Positions 540 through 56,595 of a DNA stretch of 64,000 nt are shown here, in pieces (position 1 is the first letter of the stretch; every line of letters starts with the position of its first letter). The DNA lies in contig OZ251518.1 of the NCBI GenBank assembly GCA_965242965.1, positions 4,096,001 through 4,160,000 on the forward strand, read 5' to 3'. Made by a program: the position numbers and the translations under genes. Source of the stretch: Candidatus Poribacteria bacterium. Lineage in GTDB: Bacteria; Poribacteria; WGA-4E; WGA-3G. A model generated the notes under the pieces. That model was not told the DNA's origin and searched no databases. It saw only the letters and a list, made by a program, of their open reading frames with translations.

Positions 540-1215
540 ATCCCCTTCACCGTAGGGCTTGGGCCCTCGGATGCCACACGCGCATCCGAGCGGGTGTCCC
601 TCGCCATCGCTCGCGCGCCAGGCCCTGTAGGGCAGGATCGCCAGATCCTGAACCGTTTGTGATCAGGCGATCACAAACTACAGAGGGCCCGATGCGCCGC
701 CCCCTCACCGTAGGGCGAGGGCCTGTCCCTCGCCATCGCTCGCGCAATCCAACGATCGCGGGGGACAGGCCCCCGCGCTACGAAAAAAAAACGCCACCCT
801 CTCACCGTAGGGCGAGGGCCTGTCCCTCGCCATCGCTCGCGCTGCGGAAAAAACGTCTCTTCAGGTCCGTAGGACCTTAATGTCTATAGCACGTGAGGCG
901 GCAAAGAACGCTAAGGTCCGTAGGACCTTAATAGATTTTGCCATGCGGCGCGTGTTTTTATTAAGGACCTAAAGGACCTTGACATGGGACCGGCACGTTT
1001 TTCTATAGACATGTAGGACCTAAAGGACCTAAAACGCCCCTCTTGACGATGGCGATCGCGGGGGACAGGCCCCCGCGCTACGATAAAAAACGGTTCTTGA
1101 GCCATCGCGGGGGAAACCCGCTCGGATGCGCGGGTGGCATCCGAGGGCCCACGCGCTACCGGAAAATCAAGACCAGAGGGCGCGCCTACCGAACACATCG
1201 AAATATGAAACCTTC
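540..1215. repeat. Composite palindromic repeat cluster (GTAG-REP doublets + AGGACCT module)
   Basis: GTAGGGCGAGGGCCTGTCCCTCGCC and inverted CGCGGGGGACAGGCCCCCGCGCTAC copies, AGGACCT module at 862-1030, TIR-like ATATGAAACCTTCTC at the right end. Confidence 0.95.
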
Positions 1216-1231
1216 TCGGTTAATTATCCCA

Positions 1232-5612: not shown

Positions 5613-6383
5613 TTATTCTTTAATCACAAAGAATTTCTCCTCTTTAATCCGTTCTTCCGGGAAGCGCGCGCGCGCCCAGATCGCCTTTGCATTCTCGATC
5701 ATCTGTGGATGTCCGCATGCGTAGACGACTGAGTTCGTATGATTGAAGTCTTGCGCGTCCCCGTATTTGCGGATGACATCTTCGGCGCGCCCACTTTCGC
5801 CTTCCCAACTCGGGTCTTCCCACGGCCGGCTGACTGTCGGGACGAAAGAGAACCATTCTTCCTGCGCGGCGAGTTCGTTAAGTTCGTCCATGTAGTAGCC
5901 GAGTTCCCAGGAACGGCTCGCGCCGACGATGGCGAGGAGTTGGTGCGGGCTCGGTTCGCCGCGTTCCTGCTCGATTTTCTGCGTGCGCGCGATGCTAATG
6001 TAGGGTGCCGCGCCCGTGACGGTGCCCGCCATGAGGTGCCGCGTCATGCCGCTCTCGGTGTCCATGACGAACTTCCCGACGAGACGTTCGCGGAAAAACA
6101 CACTGTCGCCGAGTTTCAATTCCCAGAACAGCGGAGTTGTTTCACCCTCCGGCACTAATTCCACGAACACTTCCATGAACGGCTCATGCGGCGAGGAGAC
6201 GATGGAGTAGGGACGCTGGACAATTTTCTCACCGACCTGGAAGCCGATAGTGGCGTATTGTCCCGGAATAAACGGGAGCTGCTTCTCCATCCCAAATTTG
6301 AACGCCGCCAAGTCTTCGGAAAAGTCCTCACGTTCAATAAGTTCGCCTTTACAATACTGCGCTCTAGCGCGTCTTCTTCGCAT
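5613..6383 (-). CDS. fpr: Ferredoxin/flavodoxin--NADP+ reductase (FNR family)
   Basis: FIPGQY, RPYSIVS, TVTGAAPY, TVSR and YACGHPQM motifs. Start placed at 6383 (AAGGA SD); the ORF extension upstream lies in repeat DNA. Confidence 0.85.
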   Translation of the reverse strand: MRRRRARAQYCKGELIEREDFSEDLAAFKFGMEKQLPFIPGQYATIGFQVGEKIVQRPYSIVSSPHEPFMEVFVELVPEGETTPLFWELKLGDSVFFRERLVGKFVMDTESGMTRHLMAGTVTGAAPYISIARTQKIEQERGEPSPHQLLAIVGASRSWELGYYMDELNELAAQEEWFSFVPTVSRPWEDPSWEGESGRAEDVIRKYGDAQDFNHTNSVVYACGHPQMIENAKAIWARARFPEERIKEEKFFVIKE

Positions 6384-6406
6384 AATAAATTCCTTTACAA
6401 TTAAAT

Positions 6407-6701
6407 GAGGGTGTTTCATAAATCGCTCAACGTCGCGGGGAAACCCGCTCGGATGCGCGTGTGGCATGCGAGGGCCCCCGCGCTACGATAAAAAACGCCT
6501 TTCCTTCACGTAGGGCGAGGGCCTGTCCCTCGCCATGCATTTTGGTGTCAGACCGCATCCCCCCTGTAGGTCAAGATCGCCTGATCTTGACCCGTTCGGG
6601 ATCAGGCGATCCCGAACTACAGAGATGGGCCCGATGCCTTCCGGTATTCGCCCGCCCTCCAAGGCGGGATAAATACCGAAACGGAGTTATGAAACACCCT
6701 G
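6407..6701. mobile_element. MITE-like composite element: TIRs enclosing REP modules, 8-bp target duplication
   Basis: AATTAAAT|GAGGGTGTTTCATAA ... TTATGAAACACCCTG|AATTAAAT (direct repeats at 6399-6406 and 6702-6709). Confidence 0.8.
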
Positions 6702-6804
6702 AATTAAATCAAGTTACGTCAAAAACCGCCGAATAGGTTTTCGACAATCGGGTTTTGTCATATTATACACGAAAAACCAAAGTAGATCAAGAGAAAAGTT
6801 TTTC

Positions 6805-7686: not shown

Positions 7687-7704
7687 ACACCGCCGTGATA
7701 CGAA

Positions 7705-8165
7705 GAACCGTTTTTTTATCGTAGCGCGGGGGCGTTTTTTATCGTAGCGCGGGGGCCTGTCCCCCGCGATCGTTTCAGGTCCCGGAGCGGGTTTCCTCGC
7801 GATCTCGGCATGGCGAGGGACAGGCCCTCGCCCTACGATGCAGGGAGGCGTTTTTTTATCGTAGCGCGGGGGCCTGTCCCCCGCGATCGTTTCAGGCTCC
7901 GTAGCGGGTTTCCTCGCGATCTCGGCATGGCGAGGGACAGGCCCTCGCCCTACGGTGCAGGGGGCGTTTTTTATCGTAGGGCTTGGGCCCTCGGATGCCA
8001 CACGCGCATCCGAGCGGGTTTCCCCCGCGATCGTTTCAGGCTCCGTAGCGGGTTTCCTCGCGATCTCGGCATGGCGAGGGACAGGCCCTCGCCCTACGAT
8101 GAGGGTGGTGTTTTTTTCGTAGACGCGCCGTCCTATTGCATCAAAACCAGGAGGGCTCTCCTACG
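7705..8165. repeat. Tandem REP doublet array
   Basis: About three near-identical units of B hairpin, GATCGTTTCAGG...GCGATCTCGGCAT spacer and inverted A hairpin. Confidence 0.95.
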
Positions 8166-9849: not shown

Positions 9850-9875
9850 CGTTGTCGAAAACGTTCCATATTCAC

Positions 9876-10375
9876 GTAGGGCGAGGGCCTGTCCCTCGCC
9901 ATCCAACGATCGCGGGGGACAGGCCCCCGCGCTACGGTGTCCGGAACGGCCTCCCTTTACCGTAGGGCGAGGGCCTGTCCCTCGCCACGCACCGATCGCG
10001 AGAAAACCCGATCGCAGGCCGAAGACCACGCGCTCCGGGGCCTGAAACGATCGCGGGGGACAGGCCCCCGCGCTACGGTATTCGGAACGGCCTCCCTTAC
10101 CGTAGGGCGAGGGCCTGTCCCTCGCCATGCACCGATCGCGAAGAAACTCGCTCGGAACGGAGCTTGAAACGATCGCGGGGGACAGGCCCCCGCGCTACGG
10201 TGTCCGGAGCGGTCTCCTTTTACCGTAGGGCGAGGGCCTGTCCCTCGCCATCCAACAACCGCGCGCAAAACAGGCCCCCGCGCTAAGCCCATCTCTGTAG
10301 TTTGTGATCGCCTGATCACAAACGGTTCAGGATCTGGCGATCCTGACCTACAGAGGTGATGCAGTCTGACAGCCC
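9876..10375. repeat. Alternating inverted A/B REP array
   Basis: Four A hairpins alternating with inverted B hairpins, then a GTAGTTTGTGATCGCCTGATCACAAAC doublet. Confidence 0.95.
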
Positions 10376-14364: not shown

Positions 14365-14429
14365 CGGGGTGAATCGAGACCGGGAGGTCTCTCCTACCGG
14401 GAACAAAGCAATATCCGAGGAAGGGAAAG

Positions 14430-16037
14430 ATGGCAACTACCAGATATTTTGAGACTCGGGGGCCGGTGGATGCGGCGTTGCACTACGTCGTGCCTCGGAC
14501 GGCGGAGTTAGCCGATTTCATCGCGCGCGTCAAACTGGGGCGGTATATCGTGATTTTCGCGCCGCGCCAGACAGGCAAGACGACGTTTTTCCGGTGGGCC
14601 CTAGCCGCGCTCGCAGCGGAAGACACAACCTATTTTCCGATTCATCTGGATTTTGAGGCGTATAAAAACTACTCGCCTGCCGATTTCTACGCCAATCTCC
14701 ACGAAGATATTCTTGAGGAGATTGAGGACGTTTTCCAGCAGCGGGGCATCGCGATGCCGGATGCCTTAACGGCGTTTTTAGCGGATGCGACGCTCACAGA
14801 TCACGTTGCCATGATAAGGTTTTTTAGAAGGTTCGCGCGTTTGCTAGGAAAGCCGCGGATTGTCCTTCTCATCGACGAATTTGATGGCATCCCGCAGGCA
14901 CTCGTGAGTGATTTTCTGTATGCACTCCGCCGTGTGTATGTCTCAAAGCGTCTTGATGACAGGGCTCCCTATAGCGTCGGCATCGTCGGTGTCAAGAACA
15001 TCACACAGTTGAACTACGATAGGACTATCTCGCCGTTTAATATCCAAGAGGAGTTCCACTTACCCAACTTCACGTTGGCACAAGTGCAGGAACTGTTCGG
15101 ACAGTATACCGCTGAAGTCGGACAACCGTTTGAACCGGCAGTCGTTGAAACCCTGCATCGGCAGACAGCCGGACAGCCGTTTCTCGTCAACCGCCTCGCG
15201 CAACTCCTCACACAGGAACCGGAGATACCGAGAACGGAGACAATCTCATTGACGCACTTCGCTGCAGCACACGCCACCGTTCTCGTGGAAGATAATGTCA
15301 ACATCCAACATCTGCGCGCCAATGTTCGCCGAAACCCGCGGTTTGAAAACCTCCTCATGAACATCGCCTTATCAGAGGACGGTGTCCTTTTCACGTTTGA
15401 CAACGAAGTCATGAGCGAACTTGCAACTTACGGTGTCATCGCCCGGGGAACCGATGGCATGTGTGAGATTGTCAATCCTATTTATCTTTACCGTATCTTG
15501 CGAACCTTCGCGCCGCTCGTCAACGGCTTAGAAGCCGACTACTACCCCGAGGACACGCGTGGGGGTAGTCACTACCTCACTTCTGATGGACAGTTGCAGA
15601 TGGACAGGCTCATGGAGAACTTCCGCGATTTCATCGCCCGCGTCGGGTTCAGGATACTGGAGGTGCCACAGACACCGCGGGAATATGTAGGACAACGCCT
15701 GCTGTTCGCCTATCTCGAACAGGTAGTGAAGCAGCAAGGCGGCGGGATGTTCCTTGAGGTGCCGACAGGGCGCGGCCGCATGGATTTACTCGTCGTCCAC
15801 CGCGGCCGCAAATATATCGTAGAAACGAAGATTTGGCACGGCACAGCGAGTTATGCAGATGGCAAGCGGCAGCTTGCCAAGTATCTCACGCTTGAGGATG
15901 CCGCCGAGGGATATTACCTCGTCTTCGATCACCGGCAGCAGCCGCAGCCCCGGACGGAAACCGAACAGATAGAGGGCAAGACGCTCCGGAGCTATGTCAT
16001 TCCTATCGTCCAAGAACGCCCATCGGACGCGGTATAG
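14430..16037 (+). CDS. AAA-like (STAND-type) ATPase with C-terminal PD-(D/E)XK nuclease domain, copy 1
   Basis: Walker A APRQTGKTT, Walker B LLIDEFD, GQPFLVN motif; C-terminal EVPTGRGRMD...VETK...QLAKY. Confidence 0.85.
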   Translation: MATTRYFETRGPVDAALHYVVPRTAELADFIARVKLGRYIVIFAPRQTGKTTFFRWALAALAAEDTTYFPIHLDFEAYKNYSPADFYANLHEDILEEIEDVFQQRGIAMPDALTAFLADATLTDHVAMIRFFRRFARLLGKPRIVLLIDEFDGIPQALVSDFLYALRRVYVSKRLDDRAPYSVGIVGVKNITQLNYDRTISPFNIQEEFHLPNFTLAQVQELFGQYTAEVGQPFEPAVVETLHRQTAGQPFLVNRLAQLLTQEPEIPRTETISLTHFAAAHATVLVEDNVNIQHLRANVRRNPRFENLLMNIALSEDGVLFTFDNEVMSELATYGVIARGTDGMCEIVNPIYLYRILRTFAPLVNGLEADYYPEDTRGGSHYLTSDGQLQMDRLMENFRDFIARVGFRILEVPQTPREYVGQRLLFAYLEQVVKQQGGGMFLEVPTGRGRMDLLVVHRGRKYIVETKIWHGTASYADGKRQLAKYLTLEDAAEGYYLVFDHRQQPQPRTETEQIEGKTLRSYVIPIVQERPSDAV

Positions 16038-16091
16038 CCACGCGTGTTATTCCACGGACGAGACTAGTTATCAACAAGGAGGCAAAAACTG

Positions 16092-17693
16092 ATGGCAACC
16101 CGATATTTTGAGACTCGAGGGCCCGTGGATGCGGCGTTGCACTACGTCGTGCCTCGGACGGTGGAGTTAGCCGATTTCATCGCGCGCGTCAAACTGGGGC
16201 GGTATATCGTTATCTTCGCGCCGCGCCAGACGGGCAAGACGACGTTCTTCCGGACAGCCCTGAAAACGTTGCTAGTTGAGGAGCCAAACTACTGTCCTAT
16301 TGAACTCAATTTCCAGGTGTATAAAAACGTCACACCGACTGCATTCTACGCGCATTTCTCGCAGAAGTTGCGCGAGGAAATTGAGAATGTCTTCCAAAAA
16401 CGGCAAGCGGTTGTTCCGGAGGCGTTGCACCGTTTGTTGGAGGAGTCAGTGCTAACCGATCATCTTGCGATGTTGGATTTCTTCAAACGTCTGGGGCGGG
16501 TGTTAGCCCCACAGCGGTTTGTCCTCATCATCGACGAGTTTGATGGTATTCCGCCGGCAATCGTGAGCGATTTTTTGTATGTGTTGCGGCAGACGTATCA
16601 TGAGGCGTTGGCTTCGCGGTGTCCGTTCAGTCTGGGGCTCGTGGGTGTGAAGGACCTCACGCAGTTGAACTACGACAGAACGATTTCGCCGTTCAATATC
16701 CAAGATGAGTTCTACTTGCCCAGCTTCACGTTGGAACAGGTGCAGGAACTGCTCGGACAGTATACCGCTGAAGTCGGACAACCGTTTGCCCCAAAGGTAA
16801 TCGAGACGTTGCATCGGCAGACAGGGGGGCAGCCCTTTCTCGTGAATCGTTTCGCGCAACTCCTCACACAGGAACTGGAGATACCTAAAACGGAGACTGT
16901 CTCACTAACGCACTTCGCGGTAGCACATGCCGCCGTTCTCGTGGAAGATAATGTCAACATCCAGCATCTGCGCGCCAATGTCCGACGAAACCCGCGGTTT
17001 GAACGTCTCCTTATGAACATCGCCTTATCAGAGAACGGCGTGCTCTTCACGCGTGACAACGAAGTCATGAGCGCACTTGCAACTTACGGTGTCATCGCCC
17101 GGGGAACCGATGGCATGTGTGAGATTGTCAATCCCATTTATCTTTACCGTATCCTGCGAACCTTCGCGCCACTCGTGAATGGCTTAGAAGCCGACTACTA
17201 CCCCGAGGACACACGTAGTGGTAGTCACTACCTCACCGCCGATGGACAGCTGCGGATGGATAGGCTCATGGAGAACTTCCGCGACTTCATCGCCCGCGTC
17301 GGGTTCAGAATTCTGAATGTGCCGGAGACACCGCGGGAATATGTAGGGCAACGCCTGCTGTTCGCCTATCTCGAACAGGTGGTAAAGCAGCAAGGCGGCG
17401 GGATGTACCTCGAAGTGCCGACAGGACGCGGCCGCATGGATTTACTCGTCGTTCACCGCGGCCGCAAATATATCGTAGAAACGAAGATTTGGCACGGCAC
17501 CGCGAGGTATGAAGCCGGCAAACAGCAACTCGCCAAGTATCTGACAGTCGAGCAGGCTGCCGAGGGATATTATCTCGTCTTCGATCATCGGCAGCAGCCA
17601 CAGCCGCGGACAGAAACCGAGCAGATAGAAGGCAGAACGCTCCGGAGCTATGTCATTCCTATCGTCCAAGAACGCCCATCGAACACCGCGTAA
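16092..17693 (+). CDS. AAA-like ATPase/PD-(D/E)XK nuclease, copy 2
   Basis: Same motifs; SD AAGGAGG. Confidence 0.85.
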   Translation: MATRYFETRGPVDAALHYVVPRTVELADFIARVKLGRYIVIFAPRQTGKTTFFRTALKTLLVEEPNYCPIELNFQVYKNVTPTAFYAHFSQKLREEIENVFQKRQAVVPEALHRLLEESVLTDHLAMLDFFKRLGRVLAPQRFVLIIDEFDGIPPAIVSDFLYVLRQTYHEALASRCPFSLGLVGVKDLTQLNYDRTISPFNIQDEFYLPSFTLEQVQELLGQYTAEVGQPFAPKVIETLHRQTGGQPFLVNRFAQLLTQELEIPKTETVSLTHFAVAHAAVLVEDNVNIQHLRANVRRNPRFERLLMNIALSENGVLFTRDNEVMSALATYGVIARGTDGMCEIVNPIYLYRILRTFAPLVNGLEADYYPEDTRSGSHYLTADGQLRMDRLMENFRDFIARVGFRILNVPETPREYVGQRLLFAYLEQVVKQQGGGMYLEVPTGRGRMDLLVVHRGRKYIVETKIWHGTARYEAGKQQLAKYLTVEQAAEGYYLVFDHRQQPQPRTETEQIEGRTLRSYVIPIVQERPSNTA

Positions 17694-17748
17694 ACTCGCG
17701 GGGTGTGCGCTAGGAGGAACACCGCTACCCGCTAAGGAGGAAACAATT

Positions 17749-19350
17749 ATGGCAACCCGATATTTTGAGACGCAGGGACCGGTAGATGCCGCCGTAAACT
17801 ACGTTGTCTCCCGGCAATCGGAACGCGCCGATTTCATCCAGCGCGTCAAGCGCGGGCGATACATTGTCATGTTCGCACCACGGCAAACAGGAAAAACGAC
17901 GTTCTTCCGGTGGGCCCTAGCCGAACTCGCGGCAGAAGACGCAACCTATTTTCCGATTCAATTCAATTTTGATGTGTATGAAGGCCGGCCCGCCGCCCGG
18001 TTTTATCCGCATTTCGCTAAAAAACTCCGCGAGGCAATTGAGGGAGTCTTCTACGAGCGTGACATCAAGCTGCCTCCGCCGCTCGCACAGTTTTTAGCGG
18101 ACGCGACGATAGCCGACCAGGTAGATATGCTAGATTTCTTTCAGGCGTTGGGACGGCATCTCACCGACTATCGCGTCGTGCTACTGATAGACGAGTTTGA
18201 TGGCATCCCGCCTGAGGCAGTGACAGGGTTTCTTCACGCACTCCGTCATATCTATATTTCCGGTGTCGCGGCTCGGTGTCCTTATAGCGTCGGCATCATC
18301 GGGGTGAAGAACGTCGTGCAACTGAACTACGATAGGACGATTTCGCCGTTTAATATACAAGAGGAGTTCCACTTACCCAACTTCACGTTGGAGCAGGTGC
18401 AGGAACTGCTCGGACAGTATACCGCTGAAGTCGGACAGCCGTTTGACCCGGCAGTCGTTGAAACCCTGCATCGGCAGAGCGGGGGGCAACCGTTTCTCGT
18501 CAATCGCCTCGCGCAACTCCTTACACAGGAACTGGAGATACCGAAAACGGAGACTGTCTCACTGACGCACTTCGCGGCAGCACATGCCGCCGTGCTGGTG
18601 GAAGATAACGTCAACATCCAGCATCTGCGCGCCAATGTCCGACGAAATCCGCGGTTTGAACGCCTCCTCATGAACATCGCCTTATCAGAAAACGGCGTGC
18701 TCTTCACGCGTGACAACGAAGTCATGAGCGAACTTGCAACGTATGGTGTCATCGCCCGGGGAACCGATGGCATGTGTGAGATTGTTAATCCCATTTATCT
18801 TTACCGTATCCTGCGAACCTTCGCACCACTCGTCAACGGCTTAGAAGCCGACTATTTCCCCGCCGACACCGGCGGCGCAGGACACTACCTCACCGCCGAA
18901 GGGCAGCTGCGAATGGACAGGCTCATGGAGAACTTCCGCGACTTCATCGCCCGCGTCGGGTTCAGAATTCTGAATGTGCCGGAGACACCGCGGGAATATG
19001 TGGGACAACGCCTGCTGTTCGCCTATCTCGAACAGGTGGTGAAGCAGCAAGGCGGCGGGATGTACCTTGAAGTGCCGACAGGGCGCGGCCGCATGGATTT
19101 ACTCGTCGTTCACCGCGGCCGCAAATATATCGTAGAAACGAAGATTTGGCACGGCGCAGAGAGGTATGCAGCCGGCAAACGGCAACTCGCCAAGTATCTC
19201 GCGCTAGAAGATGCCGCCGAGGGATATTACCTCGTCTTCGATCACCGGCAACAGCCACAGCCGCGTACGGAAACCGAGCAGATAGAAGGCAGAACGCTCC
19301 GGAGTTATGTCATCCCCATCGTCCAAGAACGCCCATCGGACACCGCGTAA
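17749..19350 (+). CDS. AAA-like ATPase/PD-(D/E)XK nuclease, copy 3
   Basis: Same motifs; start MATRYF at 17749 by paralogy, with SD AAGGAGG. Confidence 0.85.
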   Translation: MATRYFETQGPVDAAVNYVVSRQSERADFIQRVKRGRYIVMFAPRQTGKTTFFRWALAELAAEDATYFPIQFNFDVYEGRPAARFYPHFAKKLREAIEGVFYERDIKLPPPLAQFLADATIADQVDMLDFFQALGRHLTDYRVVLLIDEFDGIPPEAVTGFLHALRHIYISGVAARCPYSVGIIGVKNVVQLNYDRTISPFNIQEEFHLPNFTLEQVQELLGQYTAEVGQPFDPAVVETLHRQSGGQPFLVNRLAQLLTQELEIPKTETVSLTHFAAAHAAVLVEDNVNIQHLRANVRRNPRFERLLMNIALSENGVLFTRDNEVMSELATYGVIARGTDGMCEIVNPIYLYRILRTFAPLVNGLEADYFPADTGGAGHYLTAEGQLRMDRLMENFRDFIARVGFRILNVPETPREYVGQRLLFAYLEQVVKQQGGGMYLEVPTGRGRMDLLVVHRGRKYIVETKIWHGAERYAAGKRQLAKYLALEDAAEGYYLVFDHRQQPQPRTETEQIEGRTLRSYVIPIVQERPSDTA

Positions 19351-19405
19351 GCGCGCGGGGTGTTCGCTATGAGGAGCACCGCTATCCGCTAAGGAGGAAA
19401 CAGTT

Positions 19406-21010
19406 ATGGCAACCCGATATTTTGAGACGCAGGGACCGGTAGATGCCGCCGTGAACTACGTTGTCTCCCGTCAATCGGAACGCGCCGATTTCATTCAGCG
19501 CGTCAAGCGCGGGCGATACATCGTCATGTTCGCACCACGGCAAACAGGAAAAACGACGTTCTTCCACGCCGCCCTGGAGACGCTTGCGGCAGAAGAGCCC
19601 ACCTACTTTCCTATCGCCCTCAATTTTGAGGAATATGAAGGCCTCACTGCCCCCGATTTTTACGAGGGGCTCCGTGAAGATATATTGGCAGCAATAGAGA
19701 ACACGTTTCATCAACGTGGCAGCGAACCTTCTGAGGCATTATCGCGATTTCTGGCGGAGGCGCAGATAACAAACCATATTGCCATGAGACGATTTCTTAG
19801 CCGGTTCGCGCGTTTTTTGGATGGGCAGCGGGTTGTCCTGCTCATTGATGAATTTGATGGCATCCCATCAGATGCGGTGATGGGGTTCCTCCATTCTCTC
19901 CGCCGTGTCTATGTCTCCGAGCCGCGCGACACTCGGTGTCCCTATAGTGTCTGTATCGTGGGGGTGAAGAACGTCGCGCAGTTGAATTACGATAGGACGA
20001 TTTCGCCGTTTAATATCCAAGAGGAGTTCCATTTGCCCGGCTTCACGTTGGAACAAGTGCAAGAACTGCTCGGACAGTATACCGCTGAAGTCGGACAATC
20101 GTTTGAACCCGAAGTCCTCGCAACGCTGCAGCGGCAGACAGGCGGACAACCGTTTCTCGTCAACCGCCTCGCGCAACTCCTCACACAGGAACTGGACATC
20201 CCCAAAGACATCACCATTTCCCTGGAACACTTTGCCCAGGCACATCAGAAACTCTTGATGGAAGACAATGTCAACTTTAATCATTTGACGACGAATGTCC
20301 AGCGAGACCCGAGATTTGAACACCTGTTGATGCGCATTGCTTCCTCGGCGCAACCCATCAGTTTCAATCCCTGGAATGATGTCATGAAGGAACTCGCAAC
20401 CTACGGTGTCATCGCGAAAGCGAACGATGGCAAATGTGAGATTGTCAATCCCATCTATCAGTATTGCGTCATCCGGGCATTTCAGCGGGAAATTAACGGT
20501 TTAGAAGGGGACTACTTCCCTGCGACTACCCGCACCGGGTATCAGGATTATCTCACCCCAACCGGCGACATCGCCCTGGCACCCTTGCTAGACAATTTTC
20601 GCGATTTCATCGTGCGTGCGGGGTTTCGGCTCCTCCACGTGCCGCAGCTCCCCCGGGAATCGGTGGGCCAACACCTCTTGGCGGCTTACCTCGATGGCTT
20701 TGTGAAAGCCGTCGGCGGTTTCCTCTATCTTGAAGTACCAACCGGACGGGGCCGGATAGATATGATCATCCTCCACAACCGGCGCAAGTATATCGTGGAG
20801 ACGAAGATATGGGGGGGCGCAGGACATTATGAAGCCGGAAAGAAACAACTCGTTGCATATCTCACGCTTGAGGATGCCGCCGAGGGATATTATCTCGTCT
20901 TCGATCACCGGCAGCAGCCGCAGCCGCTTACGGAAACCGAGCAGATAGAGGGCAGAACGCTCCGGAGCTATGTCATTCCCATCATCCAAGAACGCCCATC
21001 GGACGCTTGA
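19406..21010 (+). CDS. AAA-like ATPase/PD-(D/E)XK nuclease, copy 4 (divergent C-terminal half)
   Basis: Same motifs; EVPTGRGRID...VETK retained. Confidence 0.85.
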   Translation: MATRYFETQGPVDAAVNYVVSRQSERADFIQRVKRGRYIVMFAPRQTGKTTFFHAALETLAAEEPTYFPIALNFEEYEGLTAPDFYEGLREDILAAIENTFHQRGSEPSEALSRFLAEAQITNHIAMRRFLSRFARFLDGQRVVLLIDEFDGIPSDAVMGFLHSLRRVYVSEPRDTRCPYSVCIVGVKNVAQLNYDRTISPFNIQEEFHLPGFTLEQVQELLGQYTAEVGQSFEPEVLATLQRQTGGQPFLVNRLAQLLTQELDIPKDITISLEHFAQAHQKLLMEDNVNFNHLTTNVQRDPRFEHLLMRIASSAQPISFNPWNDVMKELATYGVIAKANDGKCEIVNPIYQYCVIRAFQREINGLEGDYFPATTRTGYQDYLTPTGDIALAPLLDNFRDFIVRAGFRLLHVPQLPRESVGQHLLAAYLDGFVKAVGGFLYLEVPTGRGRIDMIILHNRRKYIVETKIWGGAGHYEAGKKQLVAYLTLEDAAEGYYLVFDHRQQPQPLTETEQIEGRTLRSYVIPIIQERPSDA

Positions 21011-21019
21011 GGAAACAGA

Positions 21020-23227
21020 ATGATTGCGGAAACAAATCAATTCCACAGCGCACTTTCCAAGTGCGCCTACCAATGCCAGAACATGCTTGCAAAACGGTAT
21101 TTTCTCTGTTTTCTGCTGTGCACTATTCCACTCATCGGGCAGCCGCAAGGCACGTGGCAGCCGATGTCAGCCGGCCCGCCGAGCGCGCGATGGCTCCATA
21201 CCGCTGTCTGGACAGGCGAAGCGTTCATCGTCTGGGGCGGCATTGATGCAAACGGCCCACTTCAGATAGGCGGCGGTTATATACCTGCGACGAACGTTTG
21301 GAGTCCACTTCCTACCGAGGGCGCGCCCGCTGCACGCGCAGACCACGGTGCTATCTGGACAGGCACACAGTTGATTGTTTGGGGAGGATTTGATAGAGAA
21401 AACACCGCACTGAAGAATGGCGGCATTTACACGCCAACATATCGGCAGTGGAATCGCCTCCCTGTCCAGAATGCCCCGGAGGCACGCGGTGGCCATACCG
21501 CTATCTGGACAGGACAGGAACTGATTATCTGGGGAGGATGGAACGGCAAAGGGATGCATTTTAGCACAGGGGGCCGTTACTCGCCAGAAAACAAGATGTG
21601 GCAACCGATGTCTCTCCACCATGCGCCGAAGCCACGCACGAGTCACACCGCTGTCTGGACAGGGGAAACGATGCTTGTCTGGGGTGGCGTGGATAAGCAC
21701 AAACAGCCTCTCCAAACCGGCGGTGTTTATGAACCCAAAACCGATGCGTGGTATCCTATTTCTATGACAAGCGCGCCATCGCCTCGCAGCGTGCATACGG
21801 CTGTCTGGACAGGGGAAACAATGCTTATCTGGGGTGGATTGGATAACGGACAACAACCCCTCCACACCGGTGGCATCTACTCGCCGATGACGGATACGTG
21901 GAAACCCCTCTCTACGAGAGCTGCGCCGAGTGCCCGCGCCGGCCACACCGCAATGTGGATAGGCGACAAGATGCTGGTATGGGGAGGCTTTGATAGGAAG
22001 GGACAACTCCTGCAGACAGGCGCGCTTTATGAACCGAGAACGGATGCATGGATGCCTCTCCCCGCGCAAAACGCACCCATCGGCAGACTCGGGCACGCAG
22101 CTGCGTGGACAGGCACGCAACTGCTCGTGTGGGGCGGCACCGATAAACGGCGTTATCTGGACAGCGGCAGCCGTTATGTCCCAGTAACCGCGCGGTGGCG
22201 GGCATTGCCCAATGAACGCGGTGCCACCGCTCGCGGCGGACACACCGCTGTCTGGACAGGAAAGGAAATGCTCATCTGGGGCGGCACGTCGCGAACCGGC
22301 TATCTCAATAGCGGCGGCAGTTACGCACCGAAAACTAACGCGTGGAAACCGCTCGCAACGGATGGCGCGCCTGCTGAACGCGCCGGACATACGGCAGTGT
22401 GGACAGGGACAGAGATGCTCGTTTGGGGAGGCACCTCACAGACAGGGCACCTCAATAGCGGCGGCAGTTACTCGCGGAAAACCGACGCATGGAAACCGCT
22501 TGCAACGCAGCAGGCACCTGAAAGCGCGCTTCTTCATAGTGCCGTTTGGACTGGCACGCAACTTATTGTGTGGGGTGGAATGAATATCTCTGAGATGCCG
22601 GTGAAGACAGGAGCGATTTACACACCCGATACTGACGTTTGGATGCCTATCTCCGTTGAGAACGCGCCGAGTCCTCGCAGTGGACACACCGCCGTATGGA
22701 GCGGCGAGATGATGCTCGTCTGGGGAGGAACTACACAGGACGGATATGTCAACACAGGCGGCCGGTATCACCTCGCGACTGATACATGGCACCCGCTGAG
22801 CCTCATCGGTGCGCCGGAGGGACGGTTCGGGCATACCGCCGTTTGGACTGGCACGCAAATGTTGATTTGGGGTGGCACTGATGGCGGACAGCCGCTCAGC
22901 ACTGGGCGAATCTATGATGCCAAAACGGATACGTGGCACCCGCTCCCTACGGAAAACGCGCCCGAGGCACGCTTCGGACATCGCGCAATCTGGAACGGCT
23001 CCGTGATGATTATCTGGGGTGGCTACGGTAGCCAAGGCAAACCGCTGAAGACAGGCGGCATGTATGAACCGCAAACCGAGACGTGGCGTTCCCTATCCAC
23101 TGAAGGAATCCCAGATGGGCGCGTGCTTCACACCGCGATTTGGGCAGGCGATAAACTGATAGTTTGGGGCGGCACGGACGGTAAGTTTCCGCAAAATACG
23201 GGCGCGATATGGAGGCAGATACCGTAG
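21020..23227 (+). CDS. Kelch-like repeat beta-propeller protein (14 repeats)
   Basis: Fourteen ~50-aa R..HTAVWTG..M.VWGG...GG.Y.P.TD.W repeats; hydrophobic N-terminal segment (alternative start 21083). Confidence 0.9.
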   Translation: MIAETNQFHSALSKCAYQCQNMLAKRYFLCFLLCTIPLIGQPQGTWQPMSAGPPSARWLHTAVWTGEAFIVWGGIDANGPLQIGGGYIPATNVWSPLPTEGAPAARADHGAIWTGTQLIVWGGFDRENTALKNGGIYTPTYRQWNRLPVQNAPEARGGHTAIWTGQELIIWGGWNGKGMHFSTGGRYSPENKMWQPMSLHHAPKPRTSHTAVWTGETMLVWGGVDKHKQPLQTGGVYEPKTDAWYPISMTSAPSPRSVHTAVWTGETMLIWGGLDNGQQPLHTGGIYSPMTDTWKPLSTRAAPSARAGHTAMWIGDKMLVWGGFDRKGQLLQTGALYEPRTDAWMPLPAQNAPIGRLGHAAAWTGTQLLVWGGTDKRRYLDSGSRYVPVTARWRALPNERGATARGGHTAVWTGKEMLIWGGTSRTGYLNSGGSYAPKTNAWKPLATDGAPAERAGHTAVWTGTEMLVWGGTSQTGHLNSGGSYSRKTDAWKPLATQQAPESALLHSAVWTGTQLIVWGGMNISEMPVKTGAIYTPDTDVWMPISVENAPSPRSGHTAVWSGEMMLVWGGTTQDGYVNTGGRYHLATDTWHPLSLIGAPEGRFGHTAVWTGTQMLIWGGTDGGQPLSTGRIYDAKTDTWHPLPTENAPEARFGHRAIWNGSVMIIWGGYGSQGKPLKTGGMYEPQTETWRSLSTEGIPDGRVLHTAIWAGDKLIVWGGTDGKFPQNTGAIWRQIP

Positions 23228-29649: not shown

Positions 29650-30140
29650 GCGCGGGGGCCTGTCCTCCGCGATAAAACGCCCATGGCCCGTAGCGCGGGG
29701 GCCTGTCCCCCGCGATCGTTGGAGTGCGCGGGCATGAACGATGGCGAGGGACAGGCCCCTCGCCCTACGGTAAAACAGGCCGTCCCGGATACCGTAGCGC
29801 GGGGGCCTGTCCCCCGCGATCGTCATCGTCACGAGGCATCGTTTTAGGTCCTACGGACCTAAGAACCGTTTTTAATCGTAGCGCGGGGGCCTGTCCCCCG
29901 CGATCGTTGGAGTGCACGGAGGATGGAGAGGGACAGGCCCTCACGCTACGGGCCACGCGGAGATCGAGAGATCGCGAGGGACAGGCCCTCGCGCTACGGA
30001 GCCCGAGGACGATTTCTTACGCCGAAAACGTAGTTCGGGAGCGCCTGCTCCCGAACGGATCAAGAGCAGGCGCTCTTGAACTACAGATGCTACGGGCATT
30101 TTATATCAATGCAACGCGAGGGACAGGCCCTCGCGCTACG
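29650..30140. repeat. REP cluster between promoter and LRR gene
   Basis: Multiple A/B/E hairpins and one AGGTCCTACGGACCT unit. Confidence 0.95.
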
Positions 30141-30200
30141 AAACGCGAAAACGATTTCTGTTGGATAACCCACTCGTGAATACGAGATAGGAGATACACT

Positions 30201-37449: not shown

Positions 37450-38127
37450 GAGGGTGTTTCATAACTCGTTCAACATCGCGGGGGATACCCGCTCGCCATA
37501 ATCCGCGCAATCCAACGTTCGCGGGGGAAACCCGCTCGGATGCGCGTGTGGCATCCGAGGGCCCCCGCGCTATGGTGAAAAAACGCCTCTCTTTCACGAA
37601 CGCCGCCCTTTCACGTAGGGCGAGGGCCTGTCCCTCGCCATCGTCGGCGCACTCCAACGATCGCGGGGGACAGGCCCCCGCGCTACGATAAAAAACGGTT
37701 CTTGAGCACTCGCGGGGGACAGGCCCCCGCGCTACGGGGAAAATGGTACGTTACCGTAGGGCGAGGGCCTGTCCCTCGCCATGCTGCGATCGCGGGGGAC
37801 AGGCCCCCGCGCTACGATAAAAAAACGCCCCCCCCTCACCGTAGGGCGAGGGCCTGTCCCTCGCCATCGTCCGCGCGCCCAGGCCCTGTAGGGCAGGAGC
37901 ACCTGAGCCTGACCCGTTCGGGTGCAGGCGCACCCGAGCTACAGAGGTGGGCCCGATGCCTGCCGGTAGGAGAGACCTCCCGGTCTCGATGCTCTCTTCG
38001 GTAGGAGATACCTCCTGGTCTCGATGAGATAAGGCGTGCGTTATCTTGACCTGTTCGGGTGCAGGCGCACCCGAGCTACAGAGGTGGGCCCGATGCCTGC
38101 CGGTAGGAGAGACCTCCCGGTCTCGAC
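37450..38127. repeat. REP cluster opened by a GAGGGTGTTTCATAA end
   Basis: TIR-type left end 2 nt after the stop codon; no clear right TIR. Confidence 0.9.
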
Positions 38128-38984: not shown

Positions 38985-39631
38985 GAGGGTGTTTCATAAA
39001 TCGCCCAACGTCGCGGGGTTCCCTCGCCATGCGTTTGGCTGACAGACCGCGTCACCTCTGTAGGTCAGGATCGCCTGATCCTGACCCGTTCGGGTGCAGG
39101 TGCTCCCGAACTACAGAGGTGGGCCCGATGCCGGCCGGTAGGAGAGACCTCCCGGTCTCGATGTTCCCGTAGCGCGGGGGACAGGCCCCCGCGAACTCCA
39201 TCGTCAAGTTATGTTTTTAGGTCCTTTAGGACCTACATGTCTATAGAAAAACGTGTCGTACCGTTTTCAAGGTCCTTTAGGTCCTTAATGAAAAACCATG
39301 CGGACTCTCAAAGTCTATTAAGGACCTAAAGGACCTTAGGGTTCTTGGCGAGTGCGCGTGCTATAGACATTAAGGTCCTAAAGGACCTAAGAGACGTTTT
39401 TTCATCGTAGCGCGAACGCTGGCGAGGGGAACCCGCTCGGATGCGCGTCTGGCATCCGAGGGCCCACGCCCTACGGTGAGGGGGGGCGTTTTTTTTCGTA
39501 GCGCGGGGGCCTGTCCCCCGCGAGCGTTGGAGTGCGCGGACGATATCAAGACCAGGAGGTCTCTCCTACCCGAAGAAATCGAGACCAGGAGGTCTCTCCT
39601 ACGGGGAAGGCATTGATATATGAAACCCCTC
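38985..39631. mobile_element. TIR-bounded composite repeat element
   Basis: GAGGGTGTTTCATAA ... ATATGAAACCCCTC; flanks GTTTTAAT/GTTTATTT match only partly; contains an AGGACCT module at 39219-39387. Confidence 0.7.
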
Positions 39632-43180: not shown

Positions 43181-43563
43181 GAGGGTGTTTCATATCTCAA
43201 TGCCTTCCGGGTAGGAGAGACCTCCTGGTCTCGATGCAATAGGGCGGCGCGCCTGCCGGGGGCGTGGCGGCAGAAACCCCCCTTCATCGTAGGGCGAGGG
43301 ACAGGCCATCGCCAGCGTCCGCGCAATACAACGCTCGCGGGGGCCTGTCCCCCGCGCTACGGAAAAAAACGGCACTTCACCGTAGGGCGAGGGCCTGTCC
43401 CTCGCCATCGCTTGAGCACCCGGCCCTGTAGGGCAGGATCAGGCGATCCTGAACTGTTCGGGAGCGGGTGCTCCCGAACTACAGAGGTGGGCCCGATGCC
43501 TGCCGGTATTCGCCAGCCCTCCAAGGCGGGATAAATACCGAAACGGAGTTATGAAACACCTTC
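43181..43563. mobile_element. TIR-bounded composite repeat element between convergent stop codons
   Basis: GAGGGTGTTTCATA ... TTATGAAACACCTTC; only a 3-bp ATT flank match. Confidence 0.7.
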
Positions 43564-44389: not shown

Positions 44390-44995
44390 CGTAGGGCGAG
44401 GGCCTGTCCCTCGCCATGTCCTGGTAGGAGAGACTTCCCGGTCTCGATGCGCGCGATGTTCCCGTAGGAGAGACTTCCTAGTCTCGATGCAATAGGGCGG
44501 CGCGCCTCCCGGGGCCGCGGCGGCAGAAAGCCCACCCCTTGAAAAAACGGTTTTTAGGTCCGTAGGACCCTAATGTCTATAGTTCGCGTGCCCGCCAAGA
44601 ACACTAAGGTCCTTTAGGGCCTTAATAGTTTTTGCCAGGTCGGCGCGTGTTTTTATTAAGGACCTAAAGGACCTTGAAAAGTAACGACACGTGTATCTAT
44701 AGACATGTAGGTCCTAAAGGACCTAAAAACATAACTTGCCGATGGAGCTCGCGGGGGACAGGCCCCCGCGCTACGGGAACATCGAGACCAGGAGGTCTCT
44801 CCTACCCGGAAAGGCATTGATATACGAAACACCCTCGCCTGAGCTATTTCCAGCCTTGCGAGGGACAGGCCCTCGCACTACGATTGCCGGATGTTTTTTG
44901 ATTCAGTTTAGCGTGTCACCACAATCATTGCGAGGGACAGGCCCTCGCACTACGTTCGCCGGCCGTTTTTTGATTCAGTTTAGCATGTCACCACA
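44390..44995. repeat. REP cluster with AGGACCT module (44556-44724), TIR-like end at ~44836 and a ~72-bp tandem duplication
   Basis: ATACGAAACACCCTC; two copies of TTGCGAGGGACAGGCCCTCGCACTACG...TTGATTCAGTTTAGC.TGTCACCACAAT. Confidence 0.9.
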
Positions 44996-46192: not shown

Positions 46193-46476
46193 CGTAGCGC
46201 GGGGGCCTGCAACTGAAACCCCTTTGGCCCGTAGCGCGGGGGCCTGTCCCCCGCGATCGTCGCATGGCGAGGGACAGGCCCTCGCCCTACGGTAAACTGA
46301 AACCCCCTTCGCCCCGTAGCGCGGGGGCCTGTCCCCCGCGATCGTTGCACGGCGAGGGACAGGCCCTCGCCCTACGGTATGCGGCACGTTTTTTCACGTA
46401 GCGCGGGGGCCCTCGCGCATCCGAGCGGGTTTCCCCCGCGATCGGTGCATGGCGAGGGACAGGCCCTCGCCCTACG
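46193..46476. repeat. A/B REP doublet array
   Basis: Three B + inverted A doublets. Confidence 0.95.
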
Positions 46477-46489
46477 TGCAACTGATTTT

Positions 46490-47821
46490 TCACGTTACCG
46501 ACGTATCTTTCAAAAAATCGTCTGTCTCAATCTGCCACTGATGCATATCAGCGGCAAGCGATTGGATGCGTTCCGCATGTTCAGGCAACATCGAAAGATC
46601 GGTTGTCTCACCCGGGTCGTTCGCCAGATCGAAGAGTTGGATGCGGTTCGTCCCCGCGCCTGTCTCTTTAGATACGTAGTAACGGATGAGTTTCCAACGT
46701 CCATCGCTGACGGTGCGCTGAATGTCGCGATAGGCGGCGAAAACAGTCTCGCGAACGCGTTCCGCGCTACCGTTCATCAACGGCACTAAACTCCTCCCCT
46801 CAACCGTATCCGGACATGCCCCGTCGGTTAACTCACAAACGGTAGGAAACACGTCGTAGAGATAGGTTAACGCATCGACTGTTTTGCCTTCGGGCACCCC
46901 CGGTCCTGCGAATATCGATGGCACGCGGATGCTGTGGCTATAGAGATTCTGTTTGCCTAACAGCCCGTGCTGTCCGACGGCTAATCCGTGGTCTGCCGTG
47001 TAAATAATCAGCGTATTTTCCAACTGCCCGGTGGCTTCCAGCGTTTTCAGCACGCGCCCGATCTCAGCATCCATGTGCGAGATCATCCCGTAATAGTCGG
47101 CGATGTGTTGCTGCACGATTTCTGGGGTGCGCGGGAACGGTGCCAACACTTCGTCTCGGATGCGCATTTCGCCGTTGTCAAACGGATGCTCCGGCATGAA
47201 GTTTTCAGGGACAGGTATCTCCTCCGGCGCATACATCGACGCGTATTCGCCGGGCGGCGTTCTCGGGTCGTGCGGTGAAGTGAACGCAAGGTAGAGGAAA
47301 AACGGGGCATCGGCATCGTATTCCTGCAAGAATTGCACCGCTTCATCGGTAAACATCTCGGTAGAGAACTTCTCGCCGATATATTTCGCCGTGTTGGGAT
47401 AGGCACCGTTTGCGTCATAATCAAAGACAGGCACCTCAAAATGACTGCTCATTCCGCCGAAGAAGATTTTGGCACCATCGGCGAAACTGTTAGTGAACGT
47501 CTGTTTGTCGTTATGCCATTTCCCGGTTGCGAAGGTATGATACCCTTCTTCGCGCATCACCTGCGGCCACACTGCTAAATCACGGTTAATCTCCTGCATG
47601 CCGCTGCGAAATAGACTCGCGCTTGTCAGCACGGCGGCGCGACTCGGCACACAAACGGCACCGACAAGCGAGCCCATGATATGCGTTTGTCGGAATGTCG
47701 TCCCGCGCGCCATGAGTGAATCGAGGGTAGGCGTTTGCACCGTTGCATCGCCCATCGCGCCGATGGCATCAAACCGATGGTCATCGGCTATCATGAAAAG
47801 AATGTTGGGTTGTGAAGGCAT
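46490..47821 (-). CDS. Formylglycine-dependent sulfatase (choline-sulfatase-like)
   Basis: PNILFMIADD, CVPSR (CxPxR), GKWH, PHDP, ADHG, GKQN. Confidence 0.93.
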   Translation of the reverse strand: MPSQPNILFMIADDHRFDAIGAMGDATVQTPTLDSLMARGTTFRQTHIMGSLVGAVCVPSRAAVLTSASLFRSGMQEINRDLAVWPQVMREEGYHTFATGKWHNDKQTFTNSFADGAKIFFGGMSSHFEVPVFDYDANGAYPNTAKYIGEKFSTEMFTDEAVQFLQEYDADAPFFLYLAFTSPHDPRTPPGEYASMYAPEEIPVPENFMPEHPFDNGEMRIRDEVLAPFPRTPEIVQQHIADYYGMISHMDAEIGRVLKTLEATGQLENTLIIYTADHGLAVGQHGLLGKQNLYSHSIRVPSIFAGPGVPEGKTVDALTYLYDVFPTVCELTDGACPDTVEGRSLVPLMNGSAERVRETVFAAYRDIQRTVSDGRWKLIRYYVSKETGAGTNRIQLFDLANDPGETTDLSMLPEHAERIQSLAADMHQWQIETDDFLKDTSVT

Positions 47822-49956: not shown

Positions 49957-49965
49957 TTCTTATTT

Positions 49966-50422
49966 CCGGGTGTTTCATATTTCGATTCGTTCGTTAGGAG
50001 AGCCCTCCTGGTCTCGATGTTCCCGTAGTGCGGGGGCCTGTCCCCCGCGAGTGTTGGGTTGCGCGAGCGATGGCGAGGGACAGGCCCTCGCCCTACGGTG
50101 AGGGGGCGTTTTTTTTTCGTAGTGCGGGGGCCTGTCCCCCGCGAGTGTTGGGTTGCGCGAGCGATGGCGAGGGACAGGCCCTCGCCCTACGGTGAGGGGG
50201 CGTTTTTTTTTCGTAGTGCGGGGGCCTGTCCCCCGCGAGTGTTGGGTTGCGCGAGCGATGGCGAGGGACAGGCCCTCGCCCTACGATGAAAGGGGGCTTT
50301 CTGCCGCCGCTGCCCCGGGCTATTGCATCGAGACCAGGAGGTCTCTCCTACCAAGAAGACGCGGGAGTCGCCCGATCTCCAACGGAGAATAAATACCGAA
50401 ACGGATTTATGAACACACCCTC
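49966..50422. mobile_element. MITE-like composite element with 8-bp target duplication
   Basis: TCTTATTT|CCGGGTGTTTCATA ... TTATGAACACACCCTC|TCTTATTT; internal 94-bp tandem of B/A doublets (about 3 copies). Confidence 0.8.
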
Positions 50423-50428
50423 TCTTAT

Positions 50429-51202
50429 TTACATCCCATCAACTGCCTTGAAAAAATCAGCATTTGATGCGCTGAAACCGAACTGCTGTTCTACCTCCCG
50501 AATGGCAATTTCAGTGGTGAACAACGTATCAAACGTGTCAGGAAATTCCACACCCGTTGTGGCATCTCGGAGGAGGACGATGTTGTAGCCATAACGCGCC
50601 ATTGAACGGATACCGTAGTCCCTGCCTAAAACGCACCAATTCGTCGCGAAACCCGCATAGAGCAGATGCAAGATGTGCTGTTCCTCCAGCAACGCATGCA
50701 ACTGTGTCCCAGCGGCGATGACAAAATCATCGGCTTGAACGTCGATTGCCGGAGAGACAGCGAGTTCCGGTTCAAGGCTATCCCAATGCACACCGATGCC
50801 CGGCGGTTGACTGCGAGGACCGCGGTAAACCTCGAAGTCGCCTTCGCGAGAACGAAACGCCTCGGGCGGCCACGCCGATGGCACAGACGATTCAGGCGGT
50901 TTATGTCGACTGAGCTGCGGATACTGCGCGGCTACTGGCGGCGAGGGTGCATGAACGATTGTGACACCGGCTCTCCGTGCCGCATCTATCACGGGAACAA
51001 CGCAGTCTACCGTTATCTGTTTTGCCCGTTCGATCCAACTTTCAATGAAATGCACGTTCCACAGATCTACCAAGACCAGGGCTGTTTGTGCAACAGGCAT
51101 CGGCATCTCAAATTCGCGACGGATGAATTGCGTCTCGCGGCACGGGATATTTGCCGGCGTGCTATCTTGAAAGTAGCGCACGCGTAAATTGAGTTTTTTC
51201 AT
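50429..51202 (-). CDS. Isochorismatase-like cysteine hydrolase
   Basis: TALVLVDLW, AGFATNWCV, LLRDAT. Confidence 0.8.
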   Translation of the reverse strand: MKKLNLRVRYFQDSTPANIPCRETQFIRREFEMPMPVAQTALVLVDLWNVHFIESWIERAKQITVDCVVPVIDAARRAGVTIVHAPSPPVAAQYPQLSRHKPPESSVPSAWPPEAFRSREGDFEVYRGPRSQPPGIGVHWDSLEPELAVSPAIDVQADDFVIAAGTQLHALLEEQHILHLLYAGFATNWCVLGRDYGIRSMARYGYNIVLLRDATTGVEFPDTFDTLFTTEIAIREVEQQFGFSASNADFFKAVDGM

Positions 51203-51211
51203 GAGTTGTGT

Positions 51212-51310
51212 GAGGGTGTTTCATAAATCCGTTTCGGTATTTATCCCGCCACCAAAACGCATGGCGAGGGACAGGCCCTCGCCCTACGTGAAGGGGCGGC
51301 GTTTTTTTCA
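51212..51310. repeat. Solo TIR end plus A hairpin
   Basis: GAGGGTGTTTCATAAATCCGTTTCGGTATTTATCCCGCC is a near-exact reverse complement of the right ends at 6663-6701 and 43524-43563. Confidence 0.8.
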
Positions 51311-55532: not shown

Positions 55533-55580
55533 GGCGAGAGGCGGCGCGCTTTACAAGCGCGCCCACCAATAATAAGCCGC

Positions 55581-55920: not shown

Positions 55921-56595
55921 GCGGGTGTTTCATAAAGCGTTCAACGTCGCGGGGGACAGGCTCCCGCGCTACGGCGAGAAAAAACGCCTCTCCTTCACGT
56001 AGGGCGTGGGCCCTCGCATGCCACACGCGCCGGCGAGGTTTCCCTCGCCATCGTCGGCGCACTCCAACGATCGCGGGGGACAGGCCCCCGCGCTACGATA
56101 AAAAAAACGGTACTTCACCGTAGGGCGAGGGCCTGTCCCTCGCCACCGTTCGCGAGCCAGGCCCTGTAGGGCAGGATCGTCTGAAGCTCTGGCATAATTG
56201 CCAAGCGATCCTGACCTGTTTGTGATCAGGCGATCACAAACTACAGAGGGAGCGCGAAAATCCCTCTTCATCGTAGGGCGAGGGCCTGTCCCTCGCCATG
56301 CCTCGCGCTACGGAAAAACGTCTCTAAGGTCCGTAGGACCTTAATGTCTATAGCACTCGGCGACGTGAAGAGATTTAAGGTCCTTTAGGTCTTAATAGTT
56401 TTTGACATGCGGCGAGTTTTTTTATTAAGGACCTAAAGGACCTTGACATGGGACCGGCACGTTTTTCTATAGACATGTAGGTCCTAAAGGACCTAAAACG
56501 CCATCTCTTGACGATGGCGATCGCGGGGGACAGGCCCCCGCGCTACGAGAACATCGAGACCGGGAGGTCTCTCCTACCCGAAGAAATCAAGACCA
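55921..56595. repeat. REP cluster opened by a GGGTGTTTCATAA end, with AGGACCT module (56327-56494)
   Basis: Same modules as the 540-1215 cluster. Confidence 0.95.

Follow-up and report, generated by a model that had tools for sequence, protein, structure and literature searches.

What is the short repeat at positions 6399-6709 of this stretch of Candidatus Poribacteria DNA, how did it come to be there, and where does the sequence between its ends come from? The window, by which we mean the whole 64,000-nucleotide stretch analyzed here, is C1:4096001-4160000 of G000, a 5.70-Mb genome in two contigs. We compared it with two congeners of genus g1 (G001 and G002), with other genomes of the family, and with sponge metagenome contigs. 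From the letters alone, the sequence-only reading had proposed composite MITE-like elements, moved by a DDE transposase reminiscent of ISAs1, inside which REP units are shuffled.

A MITE with an 8-bp target duplication

The near-perfect 15-bp inverted ends and the twice-occurring 8-mer described in the sequence-only reading are both present. The ends, GAGGGTGTTTCATAA on the left and TTATGAAACACCCTG on the right, are complementary at 14 of 15 positions, and AATTAAAT stands directly outside each of them (6399..6406 and 6702..6709); the orthologous site of G001 and G002 holds this 8-mer as a single copy. Sequence, clustering, and empty sites identify 6407..6701 (+ strand) as a 295-bp MITE of canonical A-B architecture. 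The left terminal inverted repeat, GAGGGTGTTTCATAAAT (6407..6423, + strand), matches at every base the ends of the intact IS found in sister genera, and the right one (6685..6701, - strand) has C instead of G as its outermost base. Between them lie a REP1 unit with a GTAG head and a GGGCGAGGGCCTGTCCCTCGCC hairpin (6509..6534, + strand), an inverted doublet of REP3 (J-type), CTGTAG...CTACAG (6564..6622, + strand), of the type that also flanks a RAYT-like gene, and the B module (6641..6684, + strand). The B module is a hairpin specific to the MITE: of the 114 places in the genome where the B motif occurs, 102 are no more than 60 bp away from a terminal repeat. Folded as single-stranded DNA, the whole element reaches -84.3 kcal/mol (z = -10.3).

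A minus-strand gene begins next to the element. Its likely ATG (complement of 6381-6383) is 24 bp downstream of the MITE at 6407, and about 10 bp separate its AAGGAA ribosome-binding site from the MITE, which therefore lies within the promoter/leader region of this gene.

Other paired and solo ends in the window

The 12-mer core of the ends, GGGTGTTTCATA, occurs 11 times in the window when one mismatch is allowed, compared with 0.28 expected from shuffles. A second element, 457 bp long, occupies 49966-50422 and carries three tandem 94-bp REP doublet units; with both copies of TCTTATTT, which do flank it as had been claimed, it spans 49958..50430 (+ strand), and its site is empty in G002. Its left end reads CCGGGTG..., and the right one has a 1-nt insertion. 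Both ends are also present in the two further pairs that had been named, at 38985..39631 (+ strand; around REP1, REP2, and REP4 units) and 43181..43563 (+ strand; types C and B). Comparison of ends and flanks gave no duplication for either pair: the flanks match at 5 of 8 positions, and the best result among the 8-10 bp registers tried had 5 mismatches of 10. Duplications are thus present in two of the four paired elements of the sequence-only reading.

The solo ends of that reading are real as well. The core search recovered left ends of type A at 37450..37466 (+ strand) and 55921..55937 (+ strand), a left end of type B at 51212..51228 (+ strand), and a right end at 44820..44836 (- strand). 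The ends at 51212 and 55921 were also compared with G002, in which the flank of the latter is conserved up to the junction. The solo end placed near 1215 turned out, on inspection, to be a degenerate right end at 1203..1217 (- strand).

The window has other repeats of a different kind. Four tandem repeats of ~1,657 bp each, 67-91% identical, fill 14418-21004, and a unit with a period of 147-150 bp is repeated 12 times at 21186-23172 with a conserved ...TGGACAGG...TGGGG(A/T)GG pattern; the latter is probably a gene for a repeat-domain protein.

Ends and target duplications across the genome

Genome-wide, G000 contains 973 ends (12-mer core, up to one mismatch), 623 of them exact, and the reversed pattern used as a control gave three. 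The consensus end is (T)GAGGGTGTTTCATAA(A)TC, and the consensus of the flanks is A-N-T-T-A-A-N-T, with a palindromic, AT-rich target logo. Adjacent inverted pairs less than 3 kb apart number 282 (median length 378 bp), and about 390 ends are solo.

The identity of paired flanks, which had been proposed from a few cases in the window, is far above chance across the genome. With the register counted from GAGGG, the 8-bp duplication is perfect in 58 of the 282 pairs and has at most one mismatch in 90; off-register windows yield 0-5. As a control, left and right flanks were joined anew, which keeps the target preference, and the mean was then 0.56 perfect 8-bp matches (maximum 4 in 1,000 re-pairings). 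Perfect 9-bp duplications are likewise in excess (24 observed, 0.15 expected from re-pairing). In all, a duplication of 8-10 bp, with one mismatch at most, accompanies half of the pairs (140/282); the other 142 have none. A search guided by the duplication added 22 elements, including 49966-50422, that have a perfect duplication but a degenerate partner end, with none in the control. The outermost T/A can be assigned to the end or to the duplication, and 8-bp + GAGGG and 6-bp + TGAGGG fit equally well.

Since the elements lie in REP-rich intergenic DNA and their target is a strongly preferred AT-rich palindrome, it could be argued that the shared 15-mer is itself a REP-type palindromic unit, spread by an HUH/RAYT route, and that the flanks agree because of target preference. 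We regard this as extremely improbable, as the re-pairing control retains that preference and still gives only 0.56 perfect matches, compared with 58 observed. It also conflicts with the empty sites, which have exactly one 8- or 9-mer, and with the occurrence of identical ends on an IS with a DDE transposase.

Empty sites and insertion polymorphism

In both G001 and G002, the orthologue of 6399-6709 reads ...CAC AATTAAAT CAAGTTACG..., with one 8-mer and no element, and the orthologue of 49958-50430 in G002 likewise lacks the element and shows TCTCATCT once. We compared six further duplicated elements. Four have a precise single-copy target in G001 and/or G002, among them a 536-bp non-canonical (non-A-B) mosaic that is missing as a whole from both congeners, and the other two are absent from G002 with a diverged junction. 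Thus, six of the eight duplicated elements compared have a precise single-copy target, and all eight are absent from G002. In the other direction, a 198-bp element specific to G001 has an empty site in G000. None of the nine insertions with a precise empty site had pre-existing direct repeats there; each empty site has one copy.

The site at 6407 is also represented in sponge metagenomes, as contigs rather than raw reads. In two of them, from independent studies (X1 record 1, 1,149 bp; X5 record 24, 896 bp), window position 6398 is joined directly to 6702, and their flanks are ~97.5% identical to the window (~2.4% mismatches). Contigs from X13 and X14 read from the flank into the element. With contigs both with and without it, the 6407-6701 insertion is therefore polymorphic among close relatives. 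Empty sites with a single 8-mer, for which the sequence-only reading had suggested searching related genomes and metagenomes, were accordingly found in both.

The autonomous partner in sister genera

An autonomous transposase with the same ends had been anticipated, and it exists in sister genera, not within G000. The first such element, G024:C222:75-1186, is 1,112 bp long, has the MITE ends, and contains one open reading frame that a lone TGA interrupts. Its transposase protein matched 35 of 81 family genomes and none of the three in genus g1 (G000, G001, and G002). Intact multi-copy IS are found in G022 (seven identical copies), G079, and G092, and among the matches listed there is one intact copy in G049. 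All IS copies examined have GAGGGTGTTTCATAAAT at both ends. Among 11 copies with both ends, five have a perfect 8/9-bp duplication, two have one with one mismatch, one has a 7-bp core, and three have none. The related genomes examined for the partner contain 0-15 ends each, some at contig tips.

The IS transposase scores 32.4 bits with Pfam DDE_Tnp_1_3, above the cut-off of 27. Its best score is with the NCBIfam model for IS982 (NF033520; 52 bits, E = 6.8e-14), below the 130-bit cut-off, and the nearest annotated plasmid genes are named "IS982 family transposase" at 24-26% identity. A D in EDKSL, a D in ADxxY, and an E in IEP are invariant across 12 homologues and presumably form the catalytic triad. 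Judging from these similarities, the partner IS encodes a predicted DDE transposase distantly related to IS982. Public NCBI records name the Poribacteria IS proteins "hypothetical protein"; being unnamed and far from the IS982 cut-off, the partner IS was therefore missed by IS annotation of these genomes.

The proposed link to ISAs1 did not hold. NCBIfam and Pfam searches with E up to 1 gave no match of the IS transposase to the ISAs1 model or to DDE_Tnp_1_assoc, and with PF01609 also absent from G000, ISAs1 was rejected as the parent family. The remainder of the claim stands: the elements are MITE-like and point to DDE-type transposition with duplications of 8 bp (less often 9 bp), as indicated by duplication statistics, empty sites, and an IS with identical ends.

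Within G000, no intact gene for such a transposase was found. Searches for PF01609 and PF13612 gave no match, and tblastn with the partner transposase returned relics only: seven loci keep ~146 bp of the IS end with the transposase start at 70-74% identity, and one of these, C1:2371353-2371746, also retains decayed coding fragments. Long end pairs were considered as a possible location of the gene, and the two that have perfect duplications contain ankyrin/dockerin and Type ISP-like genes instead of a transposase.

Element bodies built from REP units

The sequences adjoining the 973 ends fall into 102 clusters, and the four largest correspond to the four subterminal types noticed in the window (A, 283; B, 143; C, 111; D, 79). 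The 140 duplicated elements include 43 combinations of end types, of which A+B is the most frequent (33). Full-length clustering of the 267 pairs of up to 1 kb yielded an A-B family with 49 members (227-301 bp), two families with six and five members, seven with two, and 193 architectural singletons; 38 of 138 duplicated elements belong to multi-member families, and small families with non-canonical cargo have duplications of their own. The A-B consensus is 266 bp long and consists of an end, a REP1 inverted doublet, a REP3 doublet, the B hairpin, and an end. The 49 members have a median identity of 86.8% to it, and in longer A-B elements REP1 units are repeated or REP4 units are present. Copies of the A and B motifs keep close to the ends, 89% of them within 60 bp of one.

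REP units are far more numerous than the shells, as we call the paired ends and what they enclose. The 5.7 Mb of G000 contain 4,535 REP1, 1,199 REP2, 840 REP3, and 365 REP4 cores, and every class has a GTAG head and a distinct hairpin. Paired shells make up 1.9% of the genome and hold 12% of the REP1 cores; the other 88% are outside. A REP1 17-mer is present in all three species of the genus (2,134 copies in G000, 614 in G001, and 333 in G002) and has no copy in 10 genomes of other genera, including genera that hold the intact IS. With REP1 found in genus g1 and the IS intact only elsewhere, the MITE body is therefore genus-specific and the ends come from the IS. REP-rich stretches of the window include 576-852, 2586-2951, 7700-8120, 9870-10370, 29685-30160, and 55092-55551.

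This composition bears on whether each element could be the in-place decay product of a full-length IS, the short forms never having transposed as such. In favor of this reading are the seven relics, one with coding fragments. For the elements as a whole, we consider this very improbable: the 266-bp body of the 49-member A-B family shares only its ends of ~17-21 bp with the IS, it contains REP1, which was found in 0 of 10 genomes outside genus g1, and separate deletions could not be expected to arrive at the same foreign body.

A different question is whether REP units have their own means of entering the shells. Under the definition in PMC2817692, REPs have a GT(A/G)G head and a palindrome, and a RAYT gene is flanked by inverted REPs. 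G000 has one RAYT-like gene (Y1_Tnp; motifs PDHLHAV and RYCYQNP, with HUH and Y) at C1:about 3147583-3148100 on the minus strand (locus L004 1417-2523), with REP3 (CTGTAGNTCNGGA) units on either side of it, in both orientations. A second copy at C1:3125391-3125627 has two in-frame TGA stops. It is conceivable that REPs moved by a RAYT-type tyrosine transposase enter and rearrange within the DDE shells, which in turn spread the new combinations. The heads and hairpins typical of RAYT-linked REPs in all four classes, the REP3-flanked gene, the 43 end-type combinations, the small non-canonical families with their own duplications, and the 536-bp mosaic missing as a whole from both congeners all agree with such coupling. 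On balance, we find it doubtful. Paired shells hold only a minority of the REP1 cores, and G001 (eight ends) and G002 (one end) are rich in REP1; at 55092-55551 and 46194-46495, where there are no ends, G000 and G002 have different REP arrays; additional cargo frequently repeats existing units in tandem, for which no transposase is needed; and no REP1, REP2, or REP4 lies near the intact RAYT-like gene.

The two-tier system of the sequence-only reading therefore survives in part. Interiors are indeed assortments of REP units, REP units occupy the shells, and shells that differ in cargo were each inserted as units. Most REP1 is nevertheless outside shells and is present in congeners with almost none, and the data give no sign of shuffling by a dedicated process. 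Much of the variety in cargo looks like ordinary growth of REP arrays, for example the tandem 94-bp units in 49966-50422 and the repeated REP1 in long A-B elements, and array growth and exchange explain the variety at least in part. That the two mobility systems are functionally coupled, with REP arrays growing in shells and the shells carrying new combinations, and occasionally genes, to AT-rich sites, is a tentative idea that we think unlikely to be correct. If it were true, the shell would be a second route of REP dissemination, and REP turnover would be an engine of new mobile cargo.

One locus combines different elements at one junction. G000 C1:3014258-3015016 and G001:C102 (locus L105 5123-5385) share the right-hand junction (G000 ~3015016). 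The element in G000 is of type D, with REP1/REP4/REP2 and no left end, and the one in G001 is a 263-bp M...A element whose flanks share a 14-bp direct repeat, ACT(G/A)AGGTTCCTCT, rather than one of 8-9 bp. These may be independent hits on a hot spot or an in-place replacement.

Cassettes that carry genes

Among the 229 inverted pairs 1-6 kb apart, three have perfect duplications, compared with about 0.24 expected (chance rate 0.00104); one is a 1,094-bp MITE, and the other two carry genes. The first cassette (C1:54311-57212; 2,902 bp, duplication ATTTAAGT) holds a 588-aa ankyrin-repeat/dockerin gene, and the second (C1:188873-192792; 3,920 bp, duplication AATAAATT) a 1,023-aa Type ISP-like methyltransferase/specificity gene. 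At both sites, G001 lacks the cassette and has the 8-mer once, as does G002 at C1:54311-57212. Inside each cassette, the passenger gene is surrounded by REP arrays. Larger cassettes were not apparent: perfect duplications were found for 0 of 660 pairs at 6-20 kb and for 2 of 890 at 20-40 kb, in keeping with the chance rate of 0.00104.

Both passengers have relatives elsewhere in the genome. Ankyrin/dockerin paralogues with 81-84% identity are located at C1:1710277-1712051. The Type ISP-like gene, which has N6_Mtase, ISP coupler, and Type_ISP_C domains, is present in seven copies (82-86% identity), e.g., at C1:2790503-2793573 and 1356238-1359303 in addition to the cassette, plus more distant ones. 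The validated cassette holds one of the seven. Four other copies have one outward-facing end 390-812 bp away, which is suggestive only. Several copies have a conserved upstream stretch with an inward-facing end-like CGGTGTTTCATAACTCTGTAG.

A burst in one species and its orphaned elements

Among 112 family genomes, G000 is the outlier with 807 copies of the 15-mer end; 62, 39, 28, and 21 copies follow, and no other genome exceeds 15, with eight in G001 and one in G002. In G104, G105, and G113, most of the ends coincide with contig tips, the pattern that full-length IS would be expected to produce. G107 (genus g5) has four end pairs ~200-212 bp apart (C41:10231-10432, C170:26194-26404, C242:16894-17105, and C272:4896-5107), which suggest a separate small MITE family derived from the same IS in another genus. 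The A-B members of G000 lie ~13% from their consensus, yet some insertions are polymorphic among strains ~2% apart, and the median identity to the consensus fits poorly with a single recent burst.

We conclude that the MITEs, solo ends, and two gene cassettes of G000 are very probably non-autonomous derivatives of a ~1.1-kb Poribacteria-specific IS that burst in one species, where its transposase has since decayed and left them orphaned. In this model, the IS encodes a DDE transposase of 332-353 aa, distantly related to IS982, and ends in 17-bp terminal inverted repeats (GAGGGTGTTTCATAAAT). Insertion would occur at the AT-rich palindrome A-N-T-T-A-A-N-T through a staggered cut of 8 bp, sometimes 9 bp, giving rise to the flank duplication. 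Nothing beyond the 17-21 bp ends seems to be required, so that anything between two inverted ends may move as a unit. In genus g1, the body would have been assembled from local REP/BIME hairpins, in its canonical form the 266-bp A-B element, and variants would have arisen mainly through growth, loss, and exchange of REP units, some of them being mobilized again. The family would have expanded in one species before the transposase gene decayed, hence its present orphaned state. What the data show directly is that the ends match those of the IS, that there are duplications, empty sites, and population polymorphism, and that this assembly lacks an intact transposase gene; action of the IS transposase in trans, the mode of transposition (cut-and-paste or copy), and the way in which bodies diversified are inferred. 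Because the assembly holds no transposase able to move the elements, activity is read from their history and not from a working system.

The base-pair-level empty sites document a transposon burst in an uncultivated sponge symbiont whose congeners have almost no shells; ~2% of its genome is in paired shells, and the transposase appears to have been lost since. A MITE body can evidently be built from host REP hairpins rather than from the parent IS. REP arrays are normally thought to spread without duplications, and here they have traveled inside DDE shells too. The same ends moved an ankyrin-repeat gene and a restriction-modification gene, a concrete route for spreading such genes; ankyrin-repeat proteins belong to an "eukaryote-like" class long discussed in sponge symbiosis. 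Our literature search found no work pairing Poribacteria with MITEs ("miniature inverted-repeat"), and only incidental co-mention with "repetitive extragenic palindromic."

Comparison with known systems

The partner IS resembles the IS982 family in its length of ~1.1 kb, its single DDE transposase of ~330-350 aa, and its DDE_Tnp_1_3 score above the cut-off. It differs in the 24-26% identity of the transposase to annotated genes, in the model score (52 versus 130 bits), and in ends that start with GAGGG; ISfinder describes IS982 ends as "AC." ISAs1 elements have 8-10 bp duplications and ends resembling CAGGG in ISfinder descriptions. Our elements share the duplication length, here measured, and CAGGG-like ends, but their partner transposase is without any ISAs1 match.

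The cargo matches the REP/BIME and RAYT systems described in PMC2817692 in its GT(A/G)G head and G+C-rich palindrome, its occurrence as single units and alternating arrays, and the one RAYT-like gene flanked by inverted REPs (REP3). The arrays here differ in that they are also enclosed by DDE-type inverted ends and carried to new sites with duplication. They differ in number too: Table 1 of PMC2817692 gives several hundred REPs per genome, and the 4,535 REP1 cores here are several-fold above that.

[quoted passage not shown] The two gene-carrying units fit the class of MICs as outlined there, in that their passenger genes lie between duplicated flanks and IS ends without a transposase. What sets them apart is their passengers, ankyrin/dockerin and Type ISP-like restriction-modification genes amid REP arrays.

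Among MITEs, the closest parallels are Chunjie of Geobacter uraniireducens (178-235 bp, 21-bp TIRs, and 9-bp DRs) and Nezha of cyanobacteria, as portrayed in PMC3184786. Like them, the elements described here are short and non-coding, have terminal inverted repeats and flanking direct repeats, insert into A+T-rich DNA, fold stably, and have empty sites in relatives. Unlike them, they have bodies of host REP/BIME hairpins that vary widely (among 267 paired elements, 193 have an architecture of their own), reach ~970 ends in one genome that holds no autonomous partner, and have an IS982-like partner IS. Altogether, the locus belongs to a MITE/mobile-cassette family of a known kind, unusual in its REP-built bodies and its species-specific burst.
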